NCBI GenBank assembly: GCA_026395175.1
Contig: JAPLZF010000009.1
Span: 82,083-146,082 of the forward strand
Reading direction: 5' to 3'
DNA: 64,000 nt
Origin: Candidatus Staskawiczbacteria bacterium
GTDB lineage: Bacteria > Patescibacteriota > Minisyncoccia > Minisyncoccales > Staskawiczbacteraceae
The stretch's first letter is position 1; the number at the start of each line of letters is the position of its first letter. Both the position numbers and the translations under genes were made by a program. The notes beneath the pieces were generated by a model that was not told the DNA's origin, searched no databases, and saw only the letters and a program-made list of their open reading frames with translations. This document shows positions 1 through 60,345 of the stretch, one piece after another.

Positions 1-86
1 GTTCTACGTTGAACACGTTCAGGTTGCCGTTCGAATTGAGAATGTATAAAACGTCATCTGTGCCACTGCCCCTTGAATACTCTCAG
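1..86 (-). pseudogene. 3' fragment of a paralog of the GC-rich family gene at 417-1055. The minus-strand translation ...DDVLYILNSNGNLNVFNVE matches ...ILDSYGDLLVFSVEH of that gene, and the fragment runs off the window edge
   Basis: DNA 1-45 is about 80% identical to 515-560. In that frame a TGA lies just upstream with no Met before it. The flank at 60-100 is homologous to the flank at 17975-18015 of the second cassette. Confidence 0.35.
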
Positions 87-416
87 AGCTGTATATTATT
101 CGGCATCTTTATGCCTTAACGTTTTACACCAAGTAATCTTTATTTTTAGCAAATCAGGAGCGACTCTCACAAAAGCCTTGACCATTGTGACTCTGCGCTT
201 TCCTGAAATTCAGAATTCGGCAGCCTGAAGCCGTAACCGCAGACATATTCGCCTACTATCCTAAACATATTCTATCATATTGAAATAAAAAAAGAACCCC
301 TCGATACAAGTTGCAAACTTTGCAAAATGCGCCGAGAGGCCTGTGTCGCCAAGGGTTCAAGAAACCATGTGTCCGATGAAGGACAAGGGTTCCAAGTGCC
401 CAGAGGCAACTTGAGA

Positions 417-1055: not shown

Positions 1056-1245
1056 GACAATCTCCTTTCTATTTTGCCCGCCGTTAGGACAGGCTGTTTG
1101 ACTGCCACTATTAGCAGTCATAGCCAGAAAACACCGAATAACATCAGTATCTTTTGGCTACGACTGCTAGTTTCGCAAGTATTTGATTATAAATGTACAA
1201 TCTTTACCAATTATTAATTATACACCCATAATGAGTCTTTGTCAA
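1056..1245 (-). promoter_or_regulatory. Conserved promoter-leader cassette L1: sigma70-like TTGACA (1240-1245, rc), 17 nt spacer, TATAAT (1217-1222, rc), then a roughly 130 nt 5' UTR with a long hairpin at 1113-1168
   Basis: The -35, 17 nt spacer and -10 are all consensus. The 14-bp stem agcagtcatagcca / tggctacgactgct can extend to about 20 bp. The same element recurs at 18945-19146 and 60205-60345. Confidence 0.6.
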
Positions 1246-6427: not shown

Positions 6428-6514
6428 AATGCTATTTTTTAATTTCTAATTTTGAATTTCGATTAAATTTTAAAATTCTAATTTCGAAATTCTGGTTTTA
6501 TTCGAAATTCGAAA
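6428..6514. repeat. Degenerate array of the GAAATTC/TTCGAAA heptamer repeat (family A) in the ftsA-ybeY intergenic region
   Basis: aatttctaattttgaatttcga ... ttcgaaattcgaaatt; it shares a roughly 25 nt core with the copy inside polX at 53899-53937. Confidence 0.6.
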
Positions 6515-6901
6515 TTAAAAATTCAAAATTTCTAAATACTTCTCTTCTTTCTCCTGCATTTTTATTTCTTCTGCTCTGCTTTTCTCGTGGTCATATCCGC
6601 ACAAGTGCAAAATGCCATGAACAAAAACTTCCATTATTTTTTCTTTCTTTTCTTTTACAACTTCCGGACAAATCACAATCTCGCCTAAATAATCTTTTTC
6701 GTTAAACAAAAAAGATAAAACGTCGGTAGGTTTATTTTTCCCGCGATATTTTTTATTAAGCTTTGCAATCTCGGCTTTTTCCACAAAAGCCAAAGATAGC
6801 GTTTCCGTTTCTCTATTTTCGCCTAATAAAACTTTTTTTGCAACCTGTGAAAAACTTTTCTTATCCACAGAAAACTTGGTGAGGTTATTTATCTCTATCA
6901 T
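6515..6901 (-). CDS. ybeY: rRNA maturation endoribonuclease YbeY
   Basis: HGILHLCGYDH metal-binding motif. Confidence 0.85.
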   Translation of the reverse strand: MIEINNLTKFSVDKKSFSQVAKKVLLGENRETETLSLAFVEKAEIAKLNKKYRGKNKPTDVLSFLFNEKDYLGEIVICPEVVKEKKEKIMEVFVHGILHLCGYDHEKSRAEEIKMQEKEEKYLEILNF

Positions 6902-6995: not shown

Positions 6996-7829
6996 TTACC
7001 CTTGCAAAACTTCGGCCATTGTAAAGATGTCTTTTTCAACTTTGTGTCTGGCGAGAAACCGAATCGCCCGCAACACGCCGTCCACATAGACGTTTCTGCC
7101 CAACACATTGTATGTGAATTGCAGTTTCACGGTGCCGTCCGGAGACATCATTGTGTAGGTATGATACGCGTGGCCACCAATATATTTCTTTGGAACGCCA
7201 AGCTTCACTTCTTGGACCACAGGGTCTCGCACCATGTTGTCTGCAATCTGTTCTTTTGTGTACGGCATTCCAAGCGCCGCGAAGAATTCCAGCAGGCTCA
7301 CCGCCGTCCCACTGGGGTCTTTTTTCCCAGCCTGGTGGCTTTCTTCAATGAGCAACTGCCAGCCTTCAAGCACATTCGGAAAATTCTTGGCAGCGTATTC
7401 CAACATCGCCTGAAACATCACAACTGGCGAGGCCATATTTGGAGCAATAACAGCCGAGACACAGGACTTCTTAACCGTTTCCTCCAGCTTTTGTCTGTCT
7501 CCGCCGGTTGTCCCCATAACAAAGGGAACTCCCGCTTGGCAATACAGCTCGGCATTGCGGTTGACCGCTTTCGGTTGTGTGAAATCAACAACCATGTCAA
7601 TATCTTTACGACTCCGTAAGAAGTCTGTATGTTCATCGGTTGGAATCAAACGCACTGCTTCCGGCGACCTCTCATCTGCGATGAGCGTAACTCCTTTCTC
7701 TTCGGAAAGCGCATAAGGATACAACTCCATGTCTTCCTGAGACACAATGGCTTCCGCGACAAGCCTGGCCATTTTCCCCATTTCTTGTTGTGCTGACAAT
7801 CCTGCTACCATCGCCATAATCTTTTTCAT
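6996..7829 (-). CDS. dapB: Dihydrodipicolinate reductase (DapB)-like oxidoreductase, visibly GC-richer than its neighbours
   Basis: ESHQAGKKDPSGTA matches the DapB E-HH-K-D-PSGTA signature. Its own promoter TTGACA-16-TAGTAT lies about 100 nt upstream. Confidence 0.6.
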   Translation of the reverse strand: MKKIMAMVAGLSAQQEMGKMARLVAEAIVSQEDMELYPYALSEEKGVTLIADERSPEAVRLIPTDEHTDFLRSRKDIDMVVDFTQPKAVNRNAELYCQAGVPFVMGTTGGDRQKLEETVKKSCVSAVIAPNMASPVVMFQAMLEYAAKNFPNVLEGWQLLIEESHQAGKKDPSGTAVSLLEFFAALGMPYTKEQIADNMVRDPVVQEVKLGVPKKYIGGHAYHTYTMMSPDGTVKLQFTYNVLGRNVYVDGVLRAIRFLARHKVEKDIFTMAEVLQG

Positions 7830-16564: not shown

Positions 16565-16598
16565 AAAAAGTCGGGCTCCAGCATGTGCTAGAGCCCCT
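16565..16598 (-). terminator. Intrinsic terminator (GGGCTC-loop-GAGCCC then a T-run on the minus strand)
   Basis: Hairpin plus TTTTTTT seen in the minus-sense sequence. Confidence 0.5.
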
Positions 16599-16627
16599 CA
16601 AACTTGAAACAGGTACAACAAATGCAA

Positions 16628-16897
16628 CTACCGCCGCAAGCGCAGGGACTGCTTCCTGCACTTGGGCTTATGATGCCCATTGCCATTGCCGTTTTTGCCG
16701 TTGCCGGGGGATTGATCCCTAAAAACCTGCAGGAGCAACTTCCGCATTCCCTTCCGTCCGATGTGTTCCCCGCCATAGCGAGCGTTGAAGATTCTCGCCA
16801 GTTTTGCGATGGCGTCAGAATGCGCATTCGGGGGAACTTGAAATTTCCGTAGAAACCGTACTTGGTCCTCTGGCAACTGCATTGTCGCGTTAAGCAT
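16628..16897 (-). CDS. Hypothetical small basic protein in a GC-rich island (MLNATMQLPEDQVRFLRKF...); gene model uncertain
   Basis: This frame stops about 30 nt before the terminator. The alternative overlapping frame 16588-16968 is Cys-rich and stops inside the terminator hairpin. Confidence 0.3.
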   Translation of the reverse strand: MLNATMQLPEDQVRFLRKFQVPPNAHSDAIAKLARIFNARYGGEHIGRKGMRKLLLQVFRDQSPGNGKNGNGNGHHKPKCRKQSLRLRR

Positions 16898-17061
16898 ACT
16901 CTTTTCCCTCTTCGTTTTTGTTGTGTTTTCCCTGTTTCTACAAACAAAATTGGAAATGAGCTGACCATTCAACCGCCTTTCTCTCGGTTCTTGAATGGGT
17001 TGTTGACAACTAATATCATAGCTCTTTCATAAATTGATGTCAAATGCTATAATTACAAAAT

Positions 17062-17625
17062 ATGATAATTATTATTGGCCTGGGAAATCCGGGCAAACAA
17101 TATAAAAATACCCGCCACAATGTTGGATTTATGGCAGTTGACAGCTTTGCAGAGAAAAATAATTTCCCGGAGTTTAAGTTAAACAAAAAATTTAATTCTT
17201 TAGTTTCAGAAGGAATTATTGAAGAAGAAAAAATATTGCTCGCCAAACCTCAAACGTTTATGAATAACAGCGGTTCTGCAGTAAAATCCTTAATTCGAAA
17301 TTCGAAATTCGAAATTAGAAATTCTATCGTCGTGGTACACGACGATATAGATCTTCCTGTTGGAAAAATCAAAATCGTGCAAGAACGCGGTTCTGCCGGC
17401 CACAAAGGCGTTGAGTCAATAATTAAAAGCATTGGCAACAACGGCTTAGTAAGATTTCGCATAGGAATTGCAGGCAATAAAAAAACCGACGCCATGAAAG
17501 TTGTCTTAAAAAACTTTTCAGCAGAAGAGAAAAAAACATTGGATGAAACGATAGAAAAAATAACAGAAGCTTTAGACATGTTTATAAAAGAGGGTTTAGA
17601 AAAAACAATGAACAAATTTAATTAA
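17062..17625 (+). CDS. pth: Peptidyl-tRNA hydrolase
   Basis: MIIIIGLGNPGKQY...HNVGF motifs. It carries an in-frame heptamer-repeat insert encoding RNSKFEIRNS. Confidence 0.85.
   Translation: MIIIIGLGNPGKQYKNTRHNVGFMAVDSFAEKNNFPEFKLNKKFNSLVSEGIIEEEKILLAKPQTFMNNSGSAVKSLIRNSKFEIRNSIVVVHDDIDLPVGKIKIVQERGSAGHKGVESIIKSIGNNGLVRFRIGIAGNKKTDAMKVVLKNFSAEEKKTLDETIEKITEALDMFIKEGLEKTMNKFN
17291..17325 (+). repeat. (TTCGAAA)n heptamer tandem repeat (family A), in frame inside pth
   Basis: ttcgaaattcgaaattcgaaattagaaattc. Confidence 0.7.
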
Positions 17626-17841
17626 AAATTTGCGCTTGAATTTTTCTCGTATTCCCGTTTTTTATCAAACCTTATGATTCAAAATACTTTTCATAGTCAA
17701 AATATAAATAATAAAAGCCAGCTTTTAAGCCCCCCCCCCTAAACTTTTGCCTGTTTTAGAAAAATGTAAAGTGATGTACAAAAAGTGGATTGAAATGCAC
17801 CGCAATATTGAAAGAACTGCAAGATTTAGCAAAAGAAAACA

Positions 17842-17949
17842 TTAGCTGGAGATCACCTGGTTGCCGGCATTCCATTCGTTCGGATTCTCAACAGAGTTGG
17901 CGTTCACGTTCCAATAGCGATTGTCAGAGTTCCAGTTCGCGTTCACAGC
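17842..17949 (-). pseudogene. 3' fragment paralogous to the C-terminus of gene 18282-18944 (AVNANWNSDNRYWNVNANSVENPNEWNAGNQVISS*)
   Basis: About 85% DNA identity to 18295-18405. An in-frame TAA lies immediately upstream, so only about 35 codons are intact. Confidence 0.5.
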
Positions 17950-18281
17950 CCAGACCGATTATATGCAACACGCCATCACAACCACTGTCCTTTGAATACT
18001 CTTGGGACTGTATCTTATTTGGGACATAAAAGTCCTCCAGCGCGCTACACCGATTCTTTTCTTTTTTAGAAACTTGCATAATGACGCTTGTTGAAGACTT
18101 GTCCGCAACAATTCTGCAATATACAATTTCAAGGCGCTACGCAAAAGCCTTAACCTCCACGTTCAGCTATCCTTAGATTTATTTTACATTTTTTTGTGAA
18201 AATAAAAAGACTCTCCTTTACTTTTCAAAGTTTCAGAGAGCCATAGATTCTGAGAGTCCAAAGTCCCGAAGGGCTTTAGAG

Positions 18282-18944
18282 TCAAGAATCGCAAGAGAGG
18301 ACCTGGCTGCCAGCAAACCACACGTCCGGATTCTCAACAGAGTAGGCGTGCACGCTCCAATAGCGATTGACAGAGTTCCAGTTCGCGATCACAGCCCAGA
18401 CATTGCCGTCTTTTCCTGAGATATGCATGACGTTCGCACGCCCATTAACGAGCAATTTGCCCTCTTCTCCATGTGCCTGTTTTTTAATCAGGCAAAATAG
18501 GTAAGCGAGGTAAGCTCTGGCAAGATCGCCTAACTCAGCGATGATTTGTGGGTCTTTGGAGTCCAACTCCAACCGATGAATCGCGAGCGTGGCGTCAGGA
18601 ACGTTTTCTTCCACAAGATTGAGGAATTGTTCCTTGAAGACGTCGTTAGTCCAACCGACGTTAGCTTCTGCGAGATGGTCTTTGGCGATAAACTTCTTCG
18701 CGCCATCGACCGACGCCGTCGCAATCTTCATGAGAATACCGCCAACACGCCCACCTTTGGCCAGAAACTGAAGGAAACGTCCAAAGAAATCATCCTGGCT
18801 GTCGTTCACGATTTGTTGAGCAGTGGCACAGGATACGTCCCAATCCATCTTCCCTGTTACCACCTCAACACTCATCTTGATGAATGCCTTGAAAAGCATC
18901 ATCAAAATTTCTCCCAATTGCTCAACACTCATCCTGTCCTTCAT
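18282..18944 (-). CDS. Hypothetical protein, member 2 of the GC-rich paralogous family (C-terminal ...NRYWSVHAYSVENPDVWFAGSQVL)
   Basis: GC-rich ORF with the conserved promoter-leader upstream. Its C-terminal motif NP..W..G.QVL and internal AELG segment are shared with gene 417-1055. Start uncertain (MKDR or MSVEQ); the track start uses TTG. Confidence 0.55.
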   Translation of the reverse strand: MKDRMSVEQLGEILMMLFKAFIKMSVEVVTGKMDWDVSCATAQQIVNDSQDDFFGRFLQFLAKGGRVGGILMKIATASVDGAKKFIAKDHLAEANVGWTNDVFKEQFLNLVEENVPDATLAIHRLELDSKDPQIIAELGDLARAYLAYLFCLIKKQAHGEEGKLLVNGRANVMHISGKDGNVWAVIANWNSVNRYWSVHAYSVENPDVWFAGSQVLSCDS

Positions 18945-19146
18945 TGTATGAACCTTTTTTGCGGCTACTGTTGCTCTCGCCACAAGGCAGAGCAAGCTCA
19001 ACGCATACTGTGGCAACCCTTTGCCACACCAGAAAATTATCTGTTTCTCAAATCTCTTTCTGGCATGGCAAAAACAAGTATTTTTAAATTATAAATGTGC
19101 CAATTTACTATTTATTAATTATACACCCTCTATCAATTATTGTCAA
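18945..19146 (-). promoter_or_regulatory. Conserved promoter-leader cassette L3: perfect TTGACA (19141-19146, rc), 17 nt, TATAAT (19118-19123, rc), plus the leader hairpin (about 19021-19073)
   Basis: caagtatttttaaattataaatgtgccaatttactatttattaattatacaccc aligns to 1170-1235. The hairpin sequence differs from L1 but pairing is preserved. Confidence 0.6.
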
Positions 19147-28294: not shown

Positions 28295-29939
28295 GTTTTT
28301 CTGCTGTTTGTTTTTTTAATAATAGAGCGCAGATTTTTTTGCAAACAATCAAAGAAATTTCTTCTTTTTCTAAAAATTCTTTAACAACGTCTTCCAGTTC
28401 TTTTTGATTTATCGGGTCTAAAACTTTTATGTTTTTTACTCCGCAAGCCTTTGCAATTTCTTCAATTGAAAGTTCTGGGGCTTCTTCTCCCATCAAATTT
28501 TTTCCCATCCCGGGATTTGGCTGGTGCCCGGTCATTGCTGTAATTCTGTTATCCATTACAATCATCAAAGGGTTTGATTTGTTGTAAACAGCATTAACCA
28601 TTCCTGCAATTCCGGAATGAAAAAATGTGCCATCCCCCATAAAAGATATAACCTTTCGGCTTCGCTCAGGGCCTTCGGCCTTTAAAATGCCGTGGGCAAC
28701 ACCTATAGACGCGCCCATGCAAAACAAATAATCATACATTGAATGAGGAGGCAAAGCTCCAATCATGTTGCACCCAATATCTCCACCAAAAATTGTGCCT
28801 TCCGGGGCAATTCTTTTTATGGTTGGTAAAATATACCAATATGGGCAACCCTCACAAAGCCTTGCTGTTCTCTTTGGCAAATTCAAATTCTTTGTTTTAA
28901 ATTCGGCAAATTTCATTCCCACTACTTTTGACAAAGCGCCACAAACTTTTTCAGCGCTCAATTCTCCAATAATTGGCAAAACATTTTTGCCAAAAATTTC
29001 CATTTTTGCGTTTGCGTCTTTTGCCAACACAGCAATTTCTTTTTCAACATATCCTTCCAACTCCTCAACAACTAAAACTTTTTTTAATGGTTTTATAAAC
29101 TTTATAATTTTTTCTTTTGGTAAAGGATAAAAAGATCCAAGTTGCAAAACCGGCAAATCCAATTTCAATTCTTCCAAAGCCTCCATAACATGCAAACCTG
29201 CAACTCCCGAAGCTATTATTCCAACCTTCAAATTGTAGGACTTCGGGAGTCCTACAATTTTGTTGATTTTAGACTTTTCTGCATATGCCTGTATTTTTTT
29301 TATTTTTTCCAAAAGCTCTTTTTTCATTTCCAAGGTTCTTGGTGGCATTGTAGAATACTGATGCGGATTTTTGACGAAGTCACCCCGCGGAGTTTCAACG
29401 GAGTGGGGCTCATCCACCTCAACAACTGCCCGCTGGTGCGCGCATCTTGTAACAGTTCGTAAAATTACCGGCATATTAAATTTTTCAGAAATTTCAAAAC
29501 CAATTTTTGTAAAGTCGTAGCATTCCTGCGGATCTGCGGGCTCTAACATTGGAATATGGCCCAAATAAGCATACATTCTGGAATTTTGCTCAGATTGAGC
29601 CGAACTCCAGCAGGAAGGGTCGTCTGCCACCACAATCACCATTCCGCCTTTTGTGCCGGTGTAGGCCAATGGCAACAAAACGTCCGAGCACACATTAATT
29701 CCAAAGCTCTTCATATTCACCAAAACTTTCAAACCGGAAAAACTTGCTCCAATGGCAGATTCCAAAGCTGTTTTTTCGTTTGTAGCGTACTCTGCATAAA
29801 CCCCGTTTTCTTTGGCAATCTTGCCAAATTCGTCTCCAATTTCAGCCGATGGGCATCCGGGATATCCGGTAACATAAGAAACGCCCGATGCCAACGCCGC
29901 CCTAACTATTGCCTCATTCCCCAATAAAATTTTCTTCAT
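28284..29939 (-). CDS. iorA: Indolepyruvate:ferredoxin oxidoreductase alpha subunit (TPP-dependent)
   Basis: TPP-binding and CEGCPYW Fe-S motifs. Carries an in-frame 31-nt palindromic insert. Confidence 0.75.
   Translation of the reverse strand: MKKILLGNEAIVRAALASGVSYVTGYPGCPSAEIGDEFGKIAKENGVYAEYATNEKTALESAIGASFSGLKVLVNMKSFGINVCSDVLLPLAYTGTKGGMVIVVADDPSCWSSAQSEQNSRMYAYLGHIPMLEPADPQECYDFTKIGFEISEKFNMPVILRTVTRCAHQRAVVEVDEPHSVETPRGDFVKNPHQYSTMPPRTLEMKKELLEKIKKIQAYAEKSKINKIVGLPKSYNLKVGIIASGVAGLHVMEALEELKLDLPVLQLGSFYPLPKEKIIKFIKPLKKVLVVEELEGYVEKEIAVLAKDANAKMEIFGKNVLPIIGELSAEKVCGALSKVVGMKFAEFKTKNLNLPKRTARLCEGCPYWYILPTIKRIAPEGTIFGGDIGCNMIGALPPHSMYDYLFCMGASIGVAHGILKAEGPERSRKVISFMGDGTFFHSGIAGMVNAVYNKSNPLMIVMDNRITAMTGHQPNPGMGKNLMGEEAPELSIEEIAKACGVKNIKVLDPINQKELEDVVKEFLEKEEISLIVCKKICALLLKKQTAEKHDQ
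29230..29260. repeat. 31-nt palindromic element (family B), in frame inside iorA and encoding KIVGLPKSYNL
   Basis: aaattgtaggacttcgggagtcctacaattt, identical to 49235-49266. Confidence 0.7.
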
Positions 29940-33943: not shown

Positions 33944-34153
33944 ATGAAAGCGAACGAAGCTGTTGACGCCTTGAAAAAAGGCACTGGACTGGTCGCTTTT
34001 CGACCAAGCTGGGAAAAGGGCGAGTATCTATTTGTTACGGGAGGAAACGGAAGTGCGTGGGACGTCCACGATACGTTCAAAAAACCTCGTACACAAAAGC
34101 AAATGCTCGCCGACGCAGAGGCCAATGACTGGAGGGTTCAACTACTTGTATAA
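33944..34153 (+). CDS. DUF2829-like small protein (Tad2-like fold family), GC-rich self-contained module
   Basis: EAVDALKKGTGLVAFRPSW...YLFV...SAW...MLADAEANDWRV fits the DUF2829 pattern; strong RBS. Confidence 0.55.
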   Translation: MKANEAVDALKKGTGLVAFRPSWEKGEYLFVTGGNGSAWDVHDTFKKPRTQKQMLADAEANDWRVQLLV

Positions 34154-34345: not shown

Positions 34346-35182
34346 TTAAATATTAAATAATTTTTTAGCGTTTTGGGTGGTGGCATCTGCAACTTCGTCA
34401 AAACTCATGCCTCGTAAGTCTGCAATTTTCTGGATAACATGTTTTACAAAAATTGGCTCGTTTCTTTTTTCTCCAGCTTCAGGTGGAGCAAGGTAAGGAC
34501 AATCTGTTTCAGTTAAAAGTCGGTCCAAAGGAGCTTTTTTAATAACCTCATCAATATCAAATTTAAATATAATTCCATTGATACCAAGATAAAATCCCAA
34601 ATCCATATATTTTTGCGCCTGCTCCCAGCTTCCAGTAAAACAATGAATCACTCCGCGCAATTCGTTAACACTAGCAAGCCCTTTAAATCTACCCAAAATA
34701 TCAAGCACATCTTCGTGCGCCATTCTGCAATGAATAATAATAGGTAAATCTCGTTTAACTGCAAGATCAATCTGCTCAATAAAAACCTCTCTTTGCTTTT
34801 GCTTAAATTTTTCCTGCTTTGTAGCTCCTTTTGGTTTGTAATAATAATCCAAACCAATTTCTCCAATTGCCACAACTTTCGGCGATTTCAAAAGCTCTTT
34901 ATATTTTTGCCTATCAAATTCCTCGCCAAGCGGTTCAAATGCGCCCTCTTCCTCGTCCATTTTTAACTTCATCAAATCTGTTTTTATATGAATCGGATGC
35001 ATTCCAATTGCAGCATAAATTCCCTCATTCTTTTCAGCCAACTCAATTGCCAATTTTGAAGTTTCATATTTTGTTCCAACATCAATACAAACCACCCCCG
35101 CTTCTTTCGTGCGTTTTACAACCTCCTCCCTATCTGCATCATAGGCTTTAAAGCTTAAATGTGAGTGCGTATCAGTTATCAT
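34346..35182 (-). CDS. tatD: TatD-family metal-dependent hydrolase/DNase
   Basis: ITDTHSHL N-terminus; TIM-barrel metal ligands. Confidence 0.8.
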   Translation of the reverse strand: MITDTHSHLSFKAYDADREEVVKRTKEAGVVCIDVGTKYETSKLAIELAEKNEGIYAAIGMHPIHIKTDLMKLKMDEEEGAFEPLGEEFDRQKYKELLKSPKVVAIGEIGLDYYYKPKGATKQEKFKQKQREVFIEQIDLAVKRDLPIIIHCRMAHEDVLDILGRFKGLASVNELRGVIHCFTGSWEQAQKYMDLGFYLGINGIIFKFDIDEVIKKAPLDRLLTETDCPYLAPPEAGEKRNEPIFVKHVIQKIADLRGMSFDEVADATTQNAKKLFNI

Positions 35183-36672
35183 TTTTTGTTTTCTAGTCTC
35201 GGAAATAAAATTTCTGACCTGCCCTGAGCGGAGTCGAAGGGTTTTTCAACTACTTTTTTTATTTTTTCTGAAGTTTGTGGCAAAAATGGTTCCAGCAAAA
35301 TTCCAATTTCTTTTATAGCAAAAAATAAGTCATTAATAACTTCCATTTTTTTTGCCTGCCCAGAGCTGGTCGAAGGGGTTTCCCAAAGTTTTTCTTCATT
35401 TATATATTTGTCGCAAAAACTTATTATTTCCCAAACAGAAATTAAAGCTTCGTTAAATTTAAAACTTTCAATGGCTAATTTATAATTTTTTTGCGTTTTT
35501 TCAATTTGTTTTTTTAATTCTAAATTTGAAAATTTATTCGAAATTCGAAATTCAAAATTCGAAATTTTGTCTGATATTCCCAATGTTCTTGCTACCAGAT
35601 TGCCAATACCGCCGGCTAAATCGGCGTTGTATCTTTGCTCAAATTTTTCGTATGTAAAATCACCATCCTCTGCAGAGACGATTTCTCTTAACAAATAATA
35701 TCTAACTGCATCAACTCCATATTTGTTTACCAGCTCAAAAGGGTCAACTACATTTCCCAAAGATTTTGACATTTTTTGCCCGCCAACATTTATAAATCCA
35801 TGAACAAAAATCTTTTTAGGGAGAGCAAGCTTAGCCGACAAAAGCATTGCTGGCCAAAATATGGTATGAAACTTCATTATATCTTTGCCTAAACAATGAA
35901 CGTCTGCTGGCCAATATTTTTTGAATTGCTCTGTTTCATTGTCATATCCAATAGCCGAAATATAATTTGGCAAAGCGTCGCACCAAACATACATTACCTG
36001 TTCTGGGTCTCCCGGAACTTCAAACCCCCAATATTTATCTTTTGTTCTGGAAAAGCTTACATCTTCCATACCTTGCTTCAACATTGATAAAGTTTCATTC
36101 TTTCTAGACTCGGGAATAATTTCTATTTCGCCACTCCTAATTTTTTCTTCCACTTCTTTAGTATATTTTGAAAGCCTAAAAAAATAATTTTCTTCTTCAA
36201 CAAATTCCAGCTCTTTCAAATGTATAGGACACTTGCCATCAACTATTTCTTTTTCTGTTTTAAATGCCTCGCATCCTGGGCAATAATAACCTTTATATTT
36301 TTTCTTATAAATATCGCCTGCTTCATCTAATTTTTTCCAAAGCTTTTCTACTGCTGGCTTGTGCTTTGTTTCATCTGTGGTTCTTATAAAGTCATTATTT
36401 GATATATTTAAAATTTTTGTCAGCTCTCTAAATTTGCCAGAAATTCCATCGGCAAAATCTTTTGGGTCACGGCCCGCTTCTCTCGCCACCCTTAAGGTTT
36501 TAATGCCGTGTTCATCTGTGCCGGTCAGGAAAAAAACATCTTCACCTAAACACTTATGATATCTTGCCAAAACATCTGCCTGAATTGCCTCCAACGCAAA
36601 GCCAATGTGCGGAGGCGCATTTGTGTAGGGAATGCTGGTGGTGATATAGAATTTTTTGTTTTTATTTGTCAT
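35179..36672 (-). CDS. metG: Methionyl-tRNA synthetase
   Basis: PYTNAPPHIGH and KMSKS motifs. Start moved to MTNKNKK. Carries in-frame repeat inserts from families A and C. Confidence 0.85.
   Translation of the reverse strand: MTNKNKKFYITTSIPYTNAPPHIGFALEAIQADVLARYHKCLGEDVFFLTGTDEHGIKTLRVAREAGRDPKDFADGISGKFRELTKILNISNNDFIRTTDETKHKPAVEKLWKKLDEAGDIYKKKYKGYYCPGCEAFKTEKEIVDGKCPIHLKELEFVEEENYFFRLSKYTKEVEEKIRSGEIEIIPESRKNETLSMLKQGMEDVSFSRTKDKYWGFEVPGDPEQVMYVWCDALPNYISAIGYDNETEQFKKYWPADVHCLGKDIMKFHTIFWPAMLLSAKLALPKKIFVHGFINVGGQKMSKSLGNVVDPFELVNKYGVDAVRYYLLREIVSAEDGDFTYEKFEQRYNADLAGGIGNLVARTLGISDKISNFEFRISNKFSNLELKKQIEKTQKNYKLAIESFKFNEALISVWEIISFCDKYINEEKLWETPSTSSGQAKKMEVINDLFFAIKEIGILLEPFLPQTSEKIKKVVEKPFDSAQGRSEILFPRLENKK
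35222..35241 (+). repeat. Repeat family C copy in the metG C-terminus (KPFDSAQGRS)
   Basis: ccctgagcggagtcgaaggg. Confidence 0.6.
35359..35377 (+). repeat. Repeat family C copy in metG (PSTSSGQ)
   Basis: cccagagctggtcgaaggg. Confidence 0.6.
35523..35568. repeat. Heptamer repeat family A array, in frame in metG (ISNFEFRISNKFSN)
   Basis: aatttgaaaatttattcgaaattcgaaattcaaaattcgaaatttt. Confidence 0.65.
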
Positions 36673-36706
36673 AATGTATAAATTATATAATCTTAACACT
36701 TTTTTT

Positions 36707-37180
36707 ATGATTCTGTTAGTCCATCTTTTATTTGGAACGGCAATCGGGTCTGCGGTAAACAACGTTTGGCTGGCTATTATTTTAGCCTTTATAAGCCATT
36801 ACCTTTTAGACCTCCTCCCCCATATTGAGTATAATATCCAAAATATAGAACAAAAACAATGGCACAAAGCCCTACCGGACATTTTAAGAGTAATTTTAGA
36901 TTTTTGTCTGGGAATTTTACTTATATTTATCTTATCTAAGAATAATCCTATTATTTATATTTGCGCCTTTTTTGCCTTACTGCCGGACGGCTTAACTGTT
37001 TTTAATACTCTTTTTCCAAACAAAATTTTAGAACCTCTCCAAAAATTTCACATAGAAAAAATCCATTTCCTAAAAGAAAACCCTTCGACAAGCTCAGGGC
37101 AAGAAAAAATCTCCACTTTCTGGAGAATTTCAACTCAAGTCGTAGTAATTATAATTTCTATAGTTTTATTTAGAATATAG
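36707..37180 (+). CDS. Membrane-bound metal-dependent hydrolase-like protein (DUF457/YdjM-like)
   Basis: LVHLLFGTAIG...SHYLLDLLPH pattern in a polytopic membrane protein; start moved to the internal ATG. Confidence 0.5.
   Translation: MILLVHLLFGTAIGSAVNNVWLAIILAFISHYLLDLLPHIEYNIQNIEQKQWHKALPDILRVILDFCLGILLIFILSKNNPIIYICAFFALLPDGLTVFNTLFPNKILEPLQKFHIEKIHFLKENPSTSSGQEKISTFWRISTQVVVIIISIVLFRI
37091..37109 (+). repeat. Repeat family C copy, in coding orientation (NPSTSSGQ)
   Basis: cccttcgacaagctcaggg. Confidence 0.6.
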
Positions 37181-48258: not shown

Positions 48259-49825
48259 TTCTTTTTAGTTCTTTAGGGGTTGATATTCCCATTAATTTCA
48301 GCGCATTCTCCAAAACAATTTTTGTTGCCAATATTAAAGACAAGCGGGCTTCTGTTAATTTTTTATCTTCAGTAACAACTCTGCATTTTTCATAAAACTT
48401 ATGGAATGAATCTGCCAGTTCAATTGCATAATTTGGCAGACGTTGCAGTTGATAATCATTTGCGCTGTCTCCAATAATTTCCGGAAATCTTATTAATTGT
48501 TTTATCAATTCTAATTCACTTTGCTCTTTCAACAAATCCAAATTATTTGTTTTTGCTTTAATTTTAGATTTTGCAAAAATGCTGTTTATTCTGGCATAAG
48601 CATATTGCACTTTAAAAACCGGGTTTTTGTCTGACTTTTCTTTTGCCAAGTCCATATCAAAATTAAAATGCGTGTTTAAAGACCTTTGCAAAAAGAAAAA
48701 ACGCGCAACATCCAGGCCAACCTCGTCAATTAATTCGTCAATGGTTACATAAATTCCTGTTCTTTTAGACATGCGCACTTCTTTGCCGTTTTCAAAAAGC
48801 TTTACCAATTGCAAAACAATTGCATCAACATTTTCTTTGTTATAACCCAACGCTTGGCAAGCAGCTTTCAACCTTGCCACATAGCCGTAATGGTCTGCTC
48901 CTAAAAATATTATTAATTTGTCAAAGCCTCGCTCAAATTTATTTCTTAAATAGGCAATGTCTGAGGCAAAATAGGTTTTAACCCCATCCTCTCTTATCAA
49001 AACCCTGTCTTTGTCGTCTCCTAGTTCAGATGATTTAAACCACAAAGCGCCTTCGCTTTCGTAAGCAAAACCCTTTTTTGTGAGTTCTGCGATTGTTTTG
49101 TCCACTACGCCATTTTTATACAAAGTTGTTTCAGAAAACCAGGTATCAAATTTAATGCCCATCCTTTTCACAGACGGCTTTATCATTTTTTCTAAAATTA
49201 TCTTTCCTGCCTTTTCACCAATTTCTTCAGCTTTAAAATTGTAGGACTTCGGGAGTCCTACAATTTCTTTTCTTAAATCCTCAATATACTTTCCGGAATA
49301 AACCGCTTCTTCGTCTCCAATTACTGAATGTCCCAGCTTTGTAATTTGAGCGCCAATATCATTTATGTAATATTCTCTTGAAACTTTATATCCGGCTTTT
49401 TCTAAAACCTTTGCCAAAACATCTCCACCAAATCCGCCTCTTCCATTGCCCAGTGTCAAAGGCCCCGTGGGATTTGCAGAAATAAACTCCACATTTATTT
49501 TTTGTTTTTTCCCAATATTTGAGCTCCCAAATTTTTCCTTTCCTTTTAAAACTTTCTGCACCTGCTCTTTTAAATATTTTTCTGAAAGATAAAAATTAAT
49601 AAACCCATTTACAACTTCTATTTTAGAAAATAATTTATTTTTTTGTTTTTCTATTTCTGTTTTTATCAGCTCTGCCGTTTCGCGAGGATTTTTATTTTCT
49701 TTTTTCGCCAAAATCAACGCAACGTTGCTTGAATAATCTGCATGGCTTGAAGTTTCAACAGAAAAGTTCAGGACTTCTCCTTTAATAACTTTCTCAATTA
49801 TTTTTTTGATTTCTTCTTTTATCAT
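48245..49825 (-). CDS. argS: Arginyl-tRNA synthetase
   Basis: Class I HIGH-like SANPTGPLTLG motif and DALR anticodon-binding domain. Carries the in-frame 31-nt palindrome. Confidence 0.85.
   Translation of the reverse strand: MIKEEIKKIIEKVIKGEVLNFSVETSSHADYSSNVALILAKKENKNPRETAELIKTEIEKQKNKLFSKIEVVNGFINFYLSEKYLKEQVQKVLKGKEKFGSSNIGKKQKINVEFISANPTGPLTLGNGRGGFGGDVLAKVLEKAGYKVSREYYINDIGAQITKLGHSVIGDEEAVYSGKYIEDLRKEIVGLPKSYNFKAEEIGEKAGKIILEKMIKPSVKRMGIKFDTWFSETTLYKNGVVDKTIAELTKKGFAYESEGALWFKSSELGDDKDRVLIREDGVKTYFASDIAYLRNKFERGFDKLIIFLGADHYGYVARLKAACQALGYNKENVDAIVLQLVKLFENGKEVRMSKRTGIYVTIDELIDEVGLDVARFFFLQRSLNTHFNFDMDLAKEKSDKNPVFKVQYAYARINSIFAKSKIKAKTNNLDLLKEQSELELIKQLIRFPEIIGDSANDYQLQRLPNYAIELADSFHKFYEKCRVVTEDKKLTEARLSLILATKIVLENALKLMGISTPKELKRNEAK
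49235..49266. repeat. 31-nt palindromic element (family B), in frame in argS and encoding EIVGLPKSYNF
   Basis: aaaattgtaggacttcgggagtcctacaattt. Confidence 0.7.
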
Positions 49826-52940: not shown

Positions 52941-53408
52941 TTATTTTATAGATAAAACAAACTCATTTGCTTTTTCTAATAATTTTTTTGAATTTTTAAA
53001 TGTTGTTTTTTTAATTGCCTCTTTAATGGGCAACCACACAAAATCAATATGTTCGTCGGAAATTTTAACATCTTTTGTTTTTGTTTCTGCCAAGAAAAAA
53101 ACAACCAGTTTAAAAACCCATGGAGCTTTTTTTCTGGCTTCACCCGCCAGACCATAATTTCTCCTAAAGAAATATTTTTCCAATTCCTTAAATCCCAAAA
53201 TTATTTTTAAGTCTTTAATTCCTGTTTCCTCAAAAATCTCGCGCTTTGCGGTTTCTGTTTCGGTTTCTCCTTGTTCAACATGGCCTTTGGCAAAACCCCA
53301 TTGCCCCCTTTTCCCCTTTTCAGCCGGTGCATAATGCAAAAGTAAATAGTGCGGCACACCATTTTCCATTCTATATATTATAGCTCCTGCAGATTTTTCT
53401 TTCGGCAT
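52941..53408 (-). CDS. NUDIX hydrolase
   Basis: Nudix box GHVEQGETETETAKREIFEETG. Confidence 0.8.
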   Translation of the reverse strand: MPKEKSAGAIIYRMENGVPHYLLLHYAPAEKGKRGQWGFAKGHVEQGETETETAKREIFEETGIKDLKIILGFKELEKYFFRRNYGLAGEARKKAPWVFKLVVFFLAETKTKDVKISDEHIDFVWLPIKEAIKKTTFKNSKKLLEKANEFVLSIK

Positions 53409-55132
53409 TACTTAAAATACTTTAATAATTTTTCTACTGAATTCGTGTTTATAATATCTTCTTTCTCGGACCAGCCTCTTCGTGCTTGCGCAATTCCATA
53501 TTCCATAAAATTTAATTGCTCTTTTTGGTGAGCGTCTGTGTTTATTATCATTTTTATTCCGGCCTCTTTTGCTCTTCTAATGTAAAAACCATTCAAATCA
53601 AGCCTTTCCGGGGCAGAGTCAATTTCCAAAATTGTTCCTGTTTTTTTGGCAACTTCCAAAATTTTATCAAAGTCCATTTGGTACTCATCTCTTTTCCCAA
53701 TCAGTCTTCCTGTTGGATGCCCAAATATATCAACATTTTTATTTTGCATTGCTTTTACTATTCTTTGGGTCATTTCTTTCTTTTCCATTTTCATATTTGA
53801 ATGCACGCTGGCAATTGCATAATCCAGTTTTTCTAAAACTTCATCTTTAATATCAAGACTGCCATCTGCCATTATATTAACTTCACATCCATGCAATATG
53901 CGAAATTTCGAATTTCTAATTTTGAATTTCGAATTTAATTGTTCTATTTTTTTATTCTGGGCTAAAAGTTGTTTTTCGTTTAAGCCATGCGTTATTCCTA
54001 AAGATTTCGTATGGTCTGAAATGCCAACATATTCATATCCCATATTTATTGCCGCTTTAACCATTTCTTCAATTGAATTCTCTCCATCGGAAGCTGTTGT
54101 GTGGCAGTGCAAGTCACCTTTAATATCTTTATATCCTATTATTTTTGGCAATTCATTTTTTAAACCAGCCTCAATTTCTCCTTCATTTTCGCGAAGCTCG
54201 GGCTCAATATACGGAAGCCCAATTGCCTTATAAACGCCTTCTTCTGTCTCGCCTGCAATCTGCTTTTTCCCTTTAAATATTCCATATTCAGAAAGCTTTA
54301 AACCTTTTGAAATAGCAATTTTCCTTGTAATAATGTTATGGTCTTTGTTGCCGGTAAAATATTGCAAAGCAGACCCATAGCTTTCTTTTTTTACAACTCT
54401 CAAATCCATATCAAATCCTTCTCTTATCCTAACCGAAGCTTTTGTTCCGCCCTTGCCCCAAACTTTTTCTACTCCGTCCAACTTCACAAAAAAATCCATA
54501 ACTTTGGCAGGATTTTTAGAAACAACTAGAATGTCCACGTCCCCAATTGTTTCTTTTCTTCTTCTTACAGATCCCGCCAAGCTAATCTGGTCAACTTCTT
54601 CCAAGCTTTTTAATTTTTCCAAAACATTTCTGGCAGTAGGCAAAATTTGCCCAATTGGAAACCTGCCTTTATCTCTTTTTAAAAATTCCAAACCCTGCAA
54701 AATATTTTTTTCTGTTTTTTCTCCAAAACCAAATAGGGGAGCCACTTTGTGGGCATTAGCAACTTTTTCCAAATCCTTTAAATTTTTAACTCCCAATTTT
54801 TGATATAATATTTTTGCCTTTTTCACTCCCATCCCTTCAACCCTAACCAGCTCATCCAATTTCAACGGTAATTTTTTCTTAAAATCTTCATAATGTTTTA
54901 TTTTTCCAGTTTTTAAATATTCTTCTATGTGGTCAGCAATTGCTTTGCCAACTCCGGGAATTTCCAGCAAAGCTTTAACTCCTCCTTTTTTATAAATGTC
55001 GCCCACGTCCTCGCTCAGGCCTTCTAAAGACAAAGCTGCCCTTTGGTACGCATAGGGCTTAAAAGCCACGCCGTCGGCTTCCAAAAATCTTGCCATATCA
55101 TTGAAAACTTTAGCCAATTCCTGATTTCTCAT
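53408..55132 (-). CDS. polX: DNA polymerase X family protein with a C-terminal PHP domain
   Basis: N-terminal HhH/pol-beta-like domain, nucleotidyltransferase GDVD region, PHP histidines. Carries an in-frame heptamer-repeat insert. Confidence 0.8.
   Translation of the reverse strand: MRNQELAKVFNDMARFLEADGVAFKPYAYQRAALSLEGLSEDVGDIYKKGGVKALLEIPGVGKAIADHIEEYLKTGKIKHYEDFKKKLPLKLDELVRVEGMGVKKAKILYQKLGVKNLKDLEKVANAHKVAPLFGFGEKTEKNILQGLEFLKRDKGRFPIGQILPTARNVLEKLKSLEEVDQISLAGSVRRRKETIGDVDILVVSKNPAKVMDFFVKLDGVEKVWGKGGTKASVRIREGFDMDLRVVKKESYGSALQYFTGNKDHNIITRKIAISKGLKLSEYGIFKGKKQIAGETEEGVYKAIGLPYIEPELRENEGEIEAGLKNELPKIIGYKDIKGDLHCHTTASDGENSIEEMVKAAINMGYEYVGISDHTKSLGITHGLNEKQLLAQNKKIEQLNSKFKIRNSKFRILHGCEVNIMADGSLDIKDEVLEKLDYAIASVHSNMKMEKKEMTQRIVKAMQNKNVDIFGHPTGRLIGKRDEYQMDFDKILEVAKKTGTILEIDSAPERLDLNGFYIRRAKEAGIKMIINTDAHQKEQLNFMEYGIAQARRGWSEKEDIINTNSVEKLLKYFK
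53899..53937. repeat. Heptamer repeat family A, in frame in polX (NSKFKIRNSKFRI)
   Basis: gaaatttcgaatttctaattttgaatttcgaattt, nearly identical to the core at 6440-6465. Confidence 0.7.
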
Positions 55133-57623: not shown

Positions 57624-57877
57624 AAAATTTGCTGCAGAGCAACAAAAAACACCAGCTTTACAGCTGATGGACTTTGTTGGAGGGGGATAATAATTCCTAA
57701 CAAAAATGGATTATTTCTCGAGATAAATTCGGACAATGAATTTATGTATAATACTTATACCCTCTTCGTTAAAAACTATTATGTCCTTGAGGATAAACCT
57801 CGCACCCCCTCATAATAATTATTTTATTCTATTTTAAGCCGATGTCAAATTTTTATTCACTTTTTATCTGCAAGGGC

Positions 57878-57906
57878 TTGACACAATTTTTAGTTGGGAC
57901 TATGCT
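57878..57906 (+). promoter_or_regulatory. Sigma70-like promoter (TTGACA-17-TATGCT) driving a GC-rich orphan transcript
   Basis: Consensus -35, 17 nt spacer, near-consensus -10. Confidence 0.55.
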
Positions 57907-57912
57907 TAAATA

Positions 57913-58412
57913 ACCTAGTGTTCTTCGCGCTTCGCCACAGAAGAGGAAGTAGTACAATACACTACACACGACAAACAACACGATCAACCTGGCGAAAGGA
58001 GGGCCAATAAGCAAGACCCACGAACACTCTTCTGATGAAGAGGCCGAAGACACGATGAGGTGTAGTATAGCCACCATTGTTGTGGCACGCGACGAAGTCG
58101 GAAGACGACAAGGCAAGGAGAACTTCCATGATGCACCGGACAATGATGAAGCGAATCGTCGGCCTGACGATCGCAACGGCCGAAGTAGTGCGCGGTGTCG
58201 AGAGCAACATCGGCGTAACGGCCGGCTAGGTCCAAGTTGCTGTGACCTTGATGGTTGTGTGGCTGGGCTGCCCGCGGGCGAAATTGCTTGCTTCGGCGAG
58301 CGATATCCGGTGGGCAGCCCGCTCACAACAACAGTTCTTTGACATCAACCAGTCCTATCGCATGATAGGACATAACCCAGGAGCAACAACACACACGTTG
58401 CTCAATTTTTTT
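57913..58412 (+). ncRNA. Candidate structured ncRNA or small-ORF transcript (about 500 nt, GC-rich), delimited by a promoter and a rho-independent terminator; no convincing ORF
   Basis: All three minus frames are open (GC artefact). The plus ORFs are low-complexity. Strong internal hairpin gggctgcccgc...gggcagccc. Terminator gagcaac-loop-gttgctc then ttttttt. Confidence 0.4.
58381..58412 (+). terminator. Intrinsic terminator (gagcaacaacacacacgttgctcaattttttt)
   Basis: 7-bp stem plus T7. Confidence 0.65.
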
Positions 58413-59682: not shown

Positions 59683-60204
59683 TCAGTAAAAGTACAGCGT
59701 CACAGAATCTATCTCAATTCCGTAACCATCCCCTCCACTGATGACCAAATAGAGGATACGGTCATCACCACCGCTCTCGACATTGGCCGGGCCGATTTTG
59801 AGGCTTTCAGAAAAAACATTCCAGCCGTTGCCCCCGCTACCGGTACTGCCGGCTGTGAACGAGCCGATAAACTCGGCCCCGACGGCGAGCGTCACCCGTT
59901 CGGATATAGGACTGCCATTATCGTTCGAATACCTGACGCTAACCCACAACTTGGTGGCGCCCGGCGGGACGGAGAAATTCTTATCAATTGACTCGCCGGC
60001 ACGCAGGTGAACCGTCCAATCGTTCTGGGCGTTGCCCCGTTGCTGTTTATAACCGTCTCCTTCAAACTTCTCCGCCGGGATTTGTACCTGTTTGAGCAAG
60101 GGACCGCTTAATAACGGCTGAAGCAGAGAACAGCCCGTCATTACCGGCGCTGTTAACAGCAGCGCCATTGCCAACACCATAAACCACCACTTCGATTTCT
60201 TCAT
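59683..60204 (-). CDS. Lipoprotein, member 3 of the GC-rich paralogous family (C-terminal LYLVISGGDGYGIEIDSVTLY)
   Basis: Signal peptide with a lipobox (VMTGC); RBS AGGAGGG; the conserved leader lies upstream; GGDG C-terminal motif shared with gene 417-1055. Confidence 0.6.
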   Translation of the reverse strand: MKKSKWWFMVLAMALLLTAPVMTGCSLLQPLLSGPLLKQVQIPAEKFEGDGYKQQRGNAQNDWTVHLRAGESIDKNFSVPPGATKLWVSVRYSNDNGSPISERVTLAVGAEFIGSFTAGSTGSGGNGWNVFSESLKIGPANVESGGDDRILYLVISGGDGYGIEIDSVTLYFY

Positions 60205-60345
60205 GACCTTTACCCTCCTGTGTTGCTTAAGCTGCTGCTATAGCAGTCATAGCCAGAAAACACCGACTAATAATATCAGTATCTTTTGGCTACAACTGCT
60301 AATTTCGCAAGTAATTTTTAAGTGTAAATGTGCTGATTTATCAAG
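60205..60345 (-). promoter_or_regulatory. Conserved leader L2 with hairpin (60242-60300); its upstream end overlaps the 3' end of the Mur ligase gene
   Basis: About 90% identity to 1110-1185 over roughly 75 nt; a C-to-T change keeps pairing as G-U. Confidence 0.55.

Follow-up and report, generated by a model that had tools for sequence, protein, structure and literature searches.

Three leader hairpins and the genes behind them

The window, a 64,000-nt (64 kb) stretch of a Candidatus Staskawiczbacteria MAG (Patescibacteria), contains three copies of a long hairpin, H1, all on the minus strand and each followed by a minus-strand open reading frame whose G+C content is far above that of the ~35% GC surroundings. 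We refer to the three sites as L1 (hairpin at 1112–1169), L2 (60241–60301) and L3 (19020–19072).

As judged from their repeats, L1 and L3 are the variable-protein genes of two diversity-generating retroelements (DGRs). The L1 gene (417–1055, minus strand) encodes the 212-aa variable protein of DGR-1, with its VR at ~414–558. The window's left end carries the start of the DGR-1 TR and its immediate upstream flank (1–61, minus strand), a segment 100% identical to L001:1780–1840; L001 is a public contig with an identical L1 gene that reaches past this end, and the remainder of the TR is outside the window on that side, as are the accessory gene Avd and the reverse transcriptase (RT) gene. On L001 the Avd gene is on the opposite strand and the RT is downstream (bAvd, 1.9e-19; RVT_1, 6.3e-24), so that DGR-1 has both RT and Avd beside its TR. 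Twenty of the 23 mismatches between the DGR-1 VR and TR fall at TR adenines. The L3 gene (18282–18944, minus strand) encodes the variable protein of DGR-2, and its VR (18295–18401) forms a repeat pair with the template repeat at 17849–17955 (minus strand), with 12 of 14 mismatches at TR adenines. The target protein has its VR at the C-terminus, within a C-type-lectin/FGE-like fold, as is typical of DGRs. An intact Avd or RT was not found after the DGR-2 TR, where the next gene is pth; what is left are remnants at ~17670–17740 of the minus strand, namely an RT start and a G-run. The segment 17660–17830 (minus strand) holds the G-run at 17730–17740 and a shortened RT start (ATGAAAAGTATTTTGAATCATAAG, then a stop). 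The DGR-2 VR/TR pair, which still has adenine-specific differences, may be serviced in trans by DGR-1.

The RNA just upstream of the TR is itself conserved and apparently structured. We observed it at 46–330 (minus strand) and 17967–18060 of the window, at L001:1545–1795 and in the loci L057, L064 and L104, and it is common to both window DGRs and to metagenome DGRs. Its pattern runs ...AAAGAUACUUGGUG, a small co-varying hairpin and then CCGAAUWAGAUNCAGCUCYGAGA...UUCAAGGGGCAGUGGCACAGAUGA, and AAGAUACUUG is common to this RNA and the target-gene leader. It has no Rfam family match and probably constitutes the 5′ domain of the RNA that serves as the DGR template.

None of the L1, L2 and L3 proteins has a Pfam match. 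There is no pairwise similarity between the L1 and L3 proteins, which are connected solely via intermediate homologs. The sequence-only reading had treated the three genes as a paralog family, and this part of it has to be given up: L1 and L3 are DGR targets that share no pairwise similarity, and the L2 gene is unrelated. The latter (59683–60204, minus strand) codes for a lipoprotein of CBM6-like type and is no DGR target: neither TR of the window has a matching VR in it, and some of its homologs carry PF03422 (CBM_6). The L2 leader shares 92% identity over 48 nt with the L1 leader, and the hairpin is absent from the locus of the closest L2 homolog. The lack of a VR, the different protein family and the leaderless closest homolog led us to reject L2 as a third DGR target. 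Since the leader is so close to that of L1 while the gene behind it is an unrelated, CBM6-like one with neither a VR nor a hairpin at its closest homolog, we read the L2 leader as a recent transplant onto an unrelated gene.

The stem arms first noticed at L1 (1113–1126 and 1155–1168) and in a second copy at L2 (60242–60255 and 60287–60300) gave 4 matches in a search allowing up to 2 mismatches, against 0.22 expected. Folded as minus-strand RNA, the L1 segment (1100–1180) forms a 15-bp lower stem, an A/C internal loop and a 10-bp apical stem (−42.3 kcal/mol, z −8.8 versus shuffles). The L2 segment (60230–60312), a copy of the L1 leader, folds into 15 + 11 bp (−39.8 kcal/mol, z −7.0 versus shuffles) and the L3 segment (19010–19085) into 17 + 5 bp (−28.5 kcal/mol, z −5.9 versus shuffles), and at none of the three sites did a shuffled sequence match the native fold energy. 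The sequence-only reading had rightly seen a stem in L1 and L2, whereas the length it gave, 14–20 bp, proved too short. Its C-to-T change that keeps G-U pairing is confirmed, the L1/L2 stem differences being C-to-U changes on the minus strand that give U.G pairs. It had also described in L3 a stem-loop of the same shape but different sequence, and the L3 stem does lie at the same position with a sequence of its own, keeping CCAGAAAG...UUUUCUGG. The conserved block said to precede the hairpin, ACATTTATAAT..AAATACTTG, is present in L1 and L3 but degenerate in L2.

Immediately 5′ of the L1 hairpin lies a conserved single-stranded 5′ segment (UUGUACAUUUAUAAU..AAAUACUUGCGAAAC; 1170–1200, minus strand) that aligns with L2 and L3; in metagenome loci it takes the form AGCACAUUUACAG or AGUUCUUUGAWAA, followed by UACUUGCGA. 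On the other side of H1, the L1 fold contains a hairpin 2 (GCCUGUC-cuaac-GGCGGGC; 1076–1094, minus strand), a module that also occurs in L171 and L173 with a changed stem or loop. Direct reading found no U-tract after the stem in any of the three copies, and no terminator-like site was detected on either strand at 1100–1180. The GC-rich stem plus U-tract of an intrinsic terminator is therefore missing, and the earlier view that H1 is not a terminator stands.

A covariance model built from homologs elsewhere identified exactly three sites in the 64 kb window: L1 (77.8 bits), L2 (76.1 bits) and L3 (18.5 bits, E 0.009). A covariance-model search had been suggested as a check on the sequence-only reading, and in this form it recovers all three window sites, with strong covariation among the homologs. 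The closest homologs of the L3 protein have the canonical hairpin, and L3, placed by its fold and by the covariance model, is therefore a diverged member of the family.

The L1 promoter (1217–1245, minus strand) is a TTGACA-17-TATAAT sequence that agrees with the consensus at 12 of 12 positions. The same arrangement, TTGACA-17-TATAAT, was read directly upstream of L3 (19118–19146, minus strand), where it is homologous to the L1 promoter block (79%). A consensus promoter is absent from the L2 leader, which begins 6 nt past the stop codon of the upstream Mur-ligase gene. With the transcription start placed from the promoter consensus alone, ~35 nt of leader would lie ahead of H1. Downstream, direct reading places the L1 Shine-Dalgarno (SD) sequence AAAGGAG at 1062–1068 and the ATG start codon at 1053–1055 (1053–1068 together, minus strand). 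The SD is outside H1, ~45 nt 3′ of the 3′ end of the hairpin, and the distance from the end of H1 to the AUG is ~55 nt. Among the matches listed, a sigma-70 promoter close to consensus precedes the leader at 63 of 71 distinct loci; at homologous loci its −10 element lies a median of 50 nt upstream of TAGCC, and nearly all homologous leaders have a strong SD. The whole constitutes an expression module of a strong sigma-70 promoter, a ~150-nt structured 5′ UTR and a strong SD. We considered an anti-SD role for the 5′-terminal AGYUCYUUK and set it aside: the segment pairs with the SD at a probability of 0.24 in its natural order and likewise 0.24 when reversed, against 0.08 in shuffles, and in L042 the motif directly adjoins the SD, which counts against sequestering.

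Other features of the window were recorded in passing. GC-rich islands (45–51% GC in the ~35% GC genome) lie at 6996–7829, 16588–16968, ~33975–34150 (plus strand) and ~57850–58400. All have a TTGACA...TATAAT-like promoter of their own; the product of one is DapB-like, and no Pfam match was obtained for the rest. The covariance model did not find the leader hairpin at any of these islands of the window, which resemble genes gained by horizontal transfer. A heptamer repeat, (TTCGAAA)n, is present at 6444–6535, 17290–17328, 35512–35571 and 53904–53948. One array is within the pth gene and in frame with it, reading LIRNSKFEIRNSI; two arrays are inside the long ORFs 35179–36762 and 53408–55132, and the array at 6444–6535 spans the boundary between intergenic DNA and the 3′ end of ORF 6515–6901. 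Finally, a near-identical perfect hairpin, AAAATTGTAGGACTTCGGGAGTCCTACAATTT, occurs at 29230–29261 and 49235–49266 and has the appearance of a small repeat element or of a terminator common to both sites.

The leader family and its covariation

Scanning metagenome contigs with a two-arm DNA pattern taken from the conserved core retrieved at least 120 further copies, against ~2 estimated by chance. Since the pattern fixes part of both arms, the conservation of those columns is partly ascertainment, and covariation was scored in columns free of the pattern. Loci reached through homologs of the L1 protein are unbiased as to the leader, and the five loci found in this way (L001, L043, L044/45, L171 and L175) agree with the pattern-found set. 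Among the L1-protein homolog loci, an H1-type hairpin is present in L043, L044/45, L171 and L175 (a truncated copy in the last), L042 has a variant hairpin and L173 has the 3′ half only, while the hairpin is absent from L174, a complete DGR, and from L046–49, which are in a non-DGR context. The leader is common yet dispensable. 

The genes behind these leaders resemble those of the window. At 77 of 80 loci among the matches listed, an ORF, typically of 190–230 codons, starts 2–105 nt downstream in the same orientation. Avd and/or RT follow at fixed offsets at 19 of these 80 listed loci (Avd on the opposite strand at +1.2–1.55 kb, RT at +1.55–2.55 kb), and the 19 include most of the 24 listed loci that hold at least 2.5 kb of downstream sequence. 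A cis VR/TR pair with adenine-specific mismatches was found at 21 loci among the matches listed. In the same set, 59 of 69 downstream proteins group with those of L1 and L3 in a single superfamily, and a second DGR-target family accounts for four others.

Several individual loci are of interest in their own right. In L053 the leader drives a gene that has the variable-protein N-terminal motif and in which the VR domain is replaced; by eye, the C-terminus of the product looks like a histidine-phosphotransfer (HPt) domain. A decayed promoter and leader without an ORF lie at L119:4800–4960, directly upstream of an intact leader, and L085:9060–9250 holds a second intact leader with its gene, beyond the RT, that the pattern missed. 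The leaders in the Logan contigs L001–L015 are all identical, offering no strain variation to use. A scan of GTDB species genomes for the block ACATTTATAATN{1,6}AAATACTTG gave 26 matches, approximately the chance number by our own estimate, and none of the 26 had a hairpin or related context; the upstream block is not conserved at the exact-sequence level.

Known RNA families did not account for the leader. At the gathering threshold, Rfam 15 identified only a tmRNA and a tRNA in the 64 kb window, and with E up to 10 the leader itself gave two chance-level matches, both outside H1. A search of ten homologous DGR loci with Rfam 15, which includes RT-1..19 and riboswitches, likewise returned a tmRNA and a tRNA only. 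We found no description of a leader RNA for DGR target genes in the literature. We conclude that H1 is the core of a widespread, previously uncatalogued leader RNA tied to Patescibacteria DGR variable genes.

For covariation we aligned 75 distinct leader sequences. RNAalifold predicted one 21-bp hairpin for this set, with compensatory changes in 11 pairs. Paired cells amounted to 95.9% versus 85.2% in shuffles of the 75 sequences, and double-sided changes to 201 versus 46 ± 9 (0 of 500 shuffles reached 201); when the pairing partners were slid against each other, at most 40 double-sided changes remained. The covariation score was 0.396 versus 0.183. In pattern-free columns, the informative pairs comprise the outer stem, two adjoining pairs and the whole apical stem. 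The apical loop and apical stem are variable and the 2x2 internal loop is conserved. G.U pairs, which would be A.C on the opposite strand, occupy 227 of 1564 cells, and 152 of the G.U cells lie beyond the one pair that the pattern forces. The covariance model scored the sense strand higher throughout (50–87 bits versus 32–54 bits antisense; 77.8 versus 40.8 bits for L1). Because of the G.U pairs and the higher sense scores, the structure can be assigned to the sense RNA. These substitution patterns show that H1 is conserved as an mRNA-sense RNA structure in the 5′ leader. The central claim of the sequence-only reading, a conserved 5′ UTR hairpin, is borne out both by the fold z-scores of −5.9 to −8.8 and by compensatory changes in many homologs.

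A second helix for the 3′ arm

The 3′ arm of H1 has a second potential partner, a feature that, like the DGR context, is absent from the sequence-only reading. In nearly every leader a partial copy of the 5′ arm lies just 3′ of H1, for example GGCAGUC after GACUGCC, or GGYUCAUAGYY after GGCUAUGACC. In L1 the copy (GGCAGUC, 1100–1106) would pair with the H1 3′ arm (UGGCUAUGACUGCU) to form an alternative hairpin, H1′ (1092–1126, minus strand), with a fold energy of −17.2 kcal/mol and a z of −4.9. L3 has a downstream copy of its own 5′ arm (UUGCCACA; 19009–19016, minus strand) that pairs with its 3′ arm, UGUGGCAA (−12.8 kcal/mol, z −2.3), and the alternative hairpin of L2 is weak. In the L3 triplet, UUGCCAUG / UGUGGCAA / UUGCCACA, all three elements depart from the canonical sequence in concert.

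The same relationship is seen across the family. When the 5′ arm was left out, the 3′ arm re-paired over 6 nt or more with the 30 nt that follow it in 70 of 75 leaders; on average 8.9 nt re-paired, versus 5.6 nt with shuffled downstream sequence (Wilcoxon p = 2e-10). Counts under strict geometry were 17 versus 7.1 in permutations (maximum 14 in 1000), and 16 versus 2.5. Leaders in which the 3′ arm has AAC instead of GAC have GUU in the 5′ arm in 5 of 5 cases and GUU in the copy in 3 of 3 resolved cases; with GAC in the 3′ arm, the copy has GUU in 5 of 46. The second leader of L085 displays a three-way compensatory change (GCC/GGC/GCC), and L173 naturally retains only the 3′ arm and the downstream copy. 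In the latter contig a variable-protein gene (L173:2159–3010) is located directly downstream of an RNase III (rnc) gene, a single case of adjacency that may be a coincidence.

These patterns show two mutually exclusive helices, both co-varying and both under selection. The need for the 3′ arm to fit two partners would explain why the lower stem is near-invariant while the apical stem is free to co-vary. H1 is thermodynamically much stronger than H1′; since it is far more stable, the H1′ state would need an active trigger that removes or holds the 5′ arm.

Function of the leader and its alternatives

It is very probable that DGR targets have a cis-acting structured leader RNA, a 'variable-protein leader', with H1 as its core. 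A cis-regulatory RNA, for example the site of a trans-acting factor, had been proposed from the sequence and still appears to be the best reading. How such a leader would work is less certain. We propose, giving the idea about an even chance, a two-state leader that controls mRNA processing, stability or translation, with double-stranded RNA cleavage or a binding protein as the trigger. In the primary transcript, the 5′ and 3′ arms would pair as the ~25-bp H1. Loss or sequestration of the 5′ arm would let the 3′ arm re-pair with the downstream copy and form H1′. An RNase III-type double-strand-specific RNase might provide the trigger by cutting H1 and freeing the 5′ segment, in which case H1′ would be left as a protective 5′-terminal hairpin on the mature mRNA. 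Capped by H1′, the variable-protein mRNA would be stabilised or activated, so that the exchange would set its stability and translation. We infer the cleavage, the factor involved and the effect on expression alike, and cleavage of H1 by a double-strand-specific RNase is put forward tentatively.

H1 has the features expected of an RNase III site, a double-stranded stem of ~20 bp or more, often with an internal loop: its stem is 21–26 bp long and has one small internal loop. RNase III-processed 5′ leaders include the phage lambda N leader, the T7 early-mRNA sites and the E. coli adhE and pnp leaders, in which processing alters translation or stability. The variable-protein leader resembles them in its stem of about two helical turns, its small internal loop and its location in the 5′ UTR between promoter and ribosome-binding site, and its downstream helix could cap the new 5′ end. 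It differs in that the built-in 5′-arm copy, and with it a hairpin exchange, is not known from those sites; cleavage of H1 is putative, and the H1 sequence is far more conserved than RNase III requires. Given the low sequence specificity of RNase III, this enzyme alone does not account for the invariant internal-loop region. A binding protein at the CCA-AA-AG / UU-YC-UGG internal loop is nearly as likely a trigger as cleavage.

A related possibility, which we regard as rather unlikely when taken on its own, is that H1 remains uncleaved and serves as an operator, acting on translation or stability, for a sequence-specific RNA-binding protein. Avd or RT from the same DGR, or a factor of the host, could fill this role and, by binding at the internal loop and lower stem, would tie synthesis of the variable protein to the activity of the DGR. 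This would fit the conservation of the AA/YC internal loop and the adjoining G.U, which extends to the protein-found L043, L044 and L171 and to L3, as well as the near-confinement of the motif to DGR target genes and the occurrence of AAGAUACUUG in both the leader and the TR-upstream RNA. It sits less well with the leader on the non-DGR gene L2 and with L174, a complete DGR without the leader, and the three-way pairing already explains most of the frozen stem sequence. Known translational operator hairpins, such as the MS2 and Qbeta coat-protein operators and the ribosomal-protein leaders, overlap the start site. Like these, the leader has a single hairpin with a conserved internal loop or bulge; unlike them, H1 ends ~55 nt ahead of the AUG and does not overlap the start site. 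A simpler and, in our view, improbable reading is that the leader is a passive element of an expression cassette, a very stable hairpin whose sole effect is to stabilise or insulate the mRNAs of GC-rich genes that move horizontally, neither switching nor recruiting a factor. The near-consensus promoters and SDs, the transplantation of the module onto the unrelated L2 gene and the relatives without a leader all suit such a role. A protective hairpin would, however, be expected at the extreme 5′ end, whereas ~35 nt precede H1, and neither the conserved internal loop nor the co-varying downstream copy of the 5′ arm would be explained.

Alternatively, H1 could be part of the DGR mechanism itself, marking the target for cDNA homing or belonging to a long VR-TR RNA. 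Known cis elements of DGRs comprise the IMH together with a hairpin/cruciform that directly follows the VR on its 3′ side (Guo et al. 2011, PMC3240598) and, in the interval from TR to RT, the RT-10 or spacer RNA (Weinberg et al. 2017, PMC5737381); the motifs RT-1..19 lie beside RT genes and not in target leaders (Weinberg et al., PMC5737381). H1 resembles the IMH hairpin and RT-10 in being a conserved non-coding structure of DGR cassettes. Those elements have roles in homing or in the priming of cDNA and are found either next to the TR and RT or at the VR's 3′ end, whereas H1 is in the 5′ UTR of the target gene and pairs as sense RNA only. The tight association with DGR variable genes, including those without a nearby TR, is what a role in the mechanism would predict, yet we consider it very unlikely, because H1 lies 5′ of the start codon, with ~500–650 nt between it and the VR (~550 nt by the window coordinates), whereas the IMH/hairpin signals are at the other end of the gene, immediately 3′ of the VR (PMC3240598), and a terminator-like structure separates the gene from the TR. 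Leader-TR pairing reveals no specific complementarity (cognate −12.9 versus non-cognate −12.2 kcal/mol), and here too L174, a complete DGR, lacks H1 while the non-DGR L2 has it. Hardly any probability falls to a DNA palindrome (a cruciform, an attC-like recombination site or a MITE/REP), the last reading on our scale: the long inverted repeat at several loci and the copying of the leader to L2 are compatible with it, but the 227 G.U cells pair on the sense strand only and the antisense scores are about half the sense scores. Such elements would have equal strands and occur in arrays or in either orientation; the listed copies of H1 share one orientation upstream of an ORF at a fixed distance to the downstream start codon, the three copies in the 64 kb are all 5′ of genes, and cassette arrays and an integrase are absent. 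Almost as remote is a small-molecule riboswitch or an RNA thermometer. The location in the 5′ UTR and the mutually exclusive helices, which share one strand upstream of the SD, are indeed those of riboswitch and attenuator platforms, but the leader has no aptamer-like core and no terminator, and the SD is in neither helix. A riboswitch would be expected to have a multi-helix ligand core with invariant unpaired nucleotides; H1 is a single hairpin, conserved loop nucleotides are confined to the 2x2 internal loop, the apical loop is variable and there is no Rfam family match. The thermometer, which the sequence-only reading had offered as an example, would require a weak hairpin hiding the SD or AUG. 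With H1 at −28 to −42 kcal/mol (~−40 kcal/mol at L1 and L2) and the SD outside the hairpin, ~45 nt further downstream, a thermometer is unlikely.

To our knowledge, DGRs are the only dedicated protein-hypermutation systems in prokaryotes. They are especially abundant in uncultivated Patescibacteria. We know of almost nothing on the expression or regulation of their variable proteins, and the leader is a first handle on the control of these genes. It adds to the RNA families a widespread one that is missing from Rfam 15. A bolder version of the two-state leader, to which we give only a slim chance, is a DGR-dedicated riboregulator in which H1 would be recognised by Avd/RT or a dedicated partner and the H1-to-H1′ exchange would couple variable-protein synthesis to retroelement activity. 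If true, DGR target genes would gain their first known regulatory RNA, one with a hairpin-exchange design unlike any catalogued RNA family. The motif is sequence-defined, co-varying and easily searched, and it marks variable-protein genes, including trans and orphan targets without a TR; together with its promoter it defines a portable promoter-leader module whose hypothesised modes of action are processing, factor binding and hairpin exchange.
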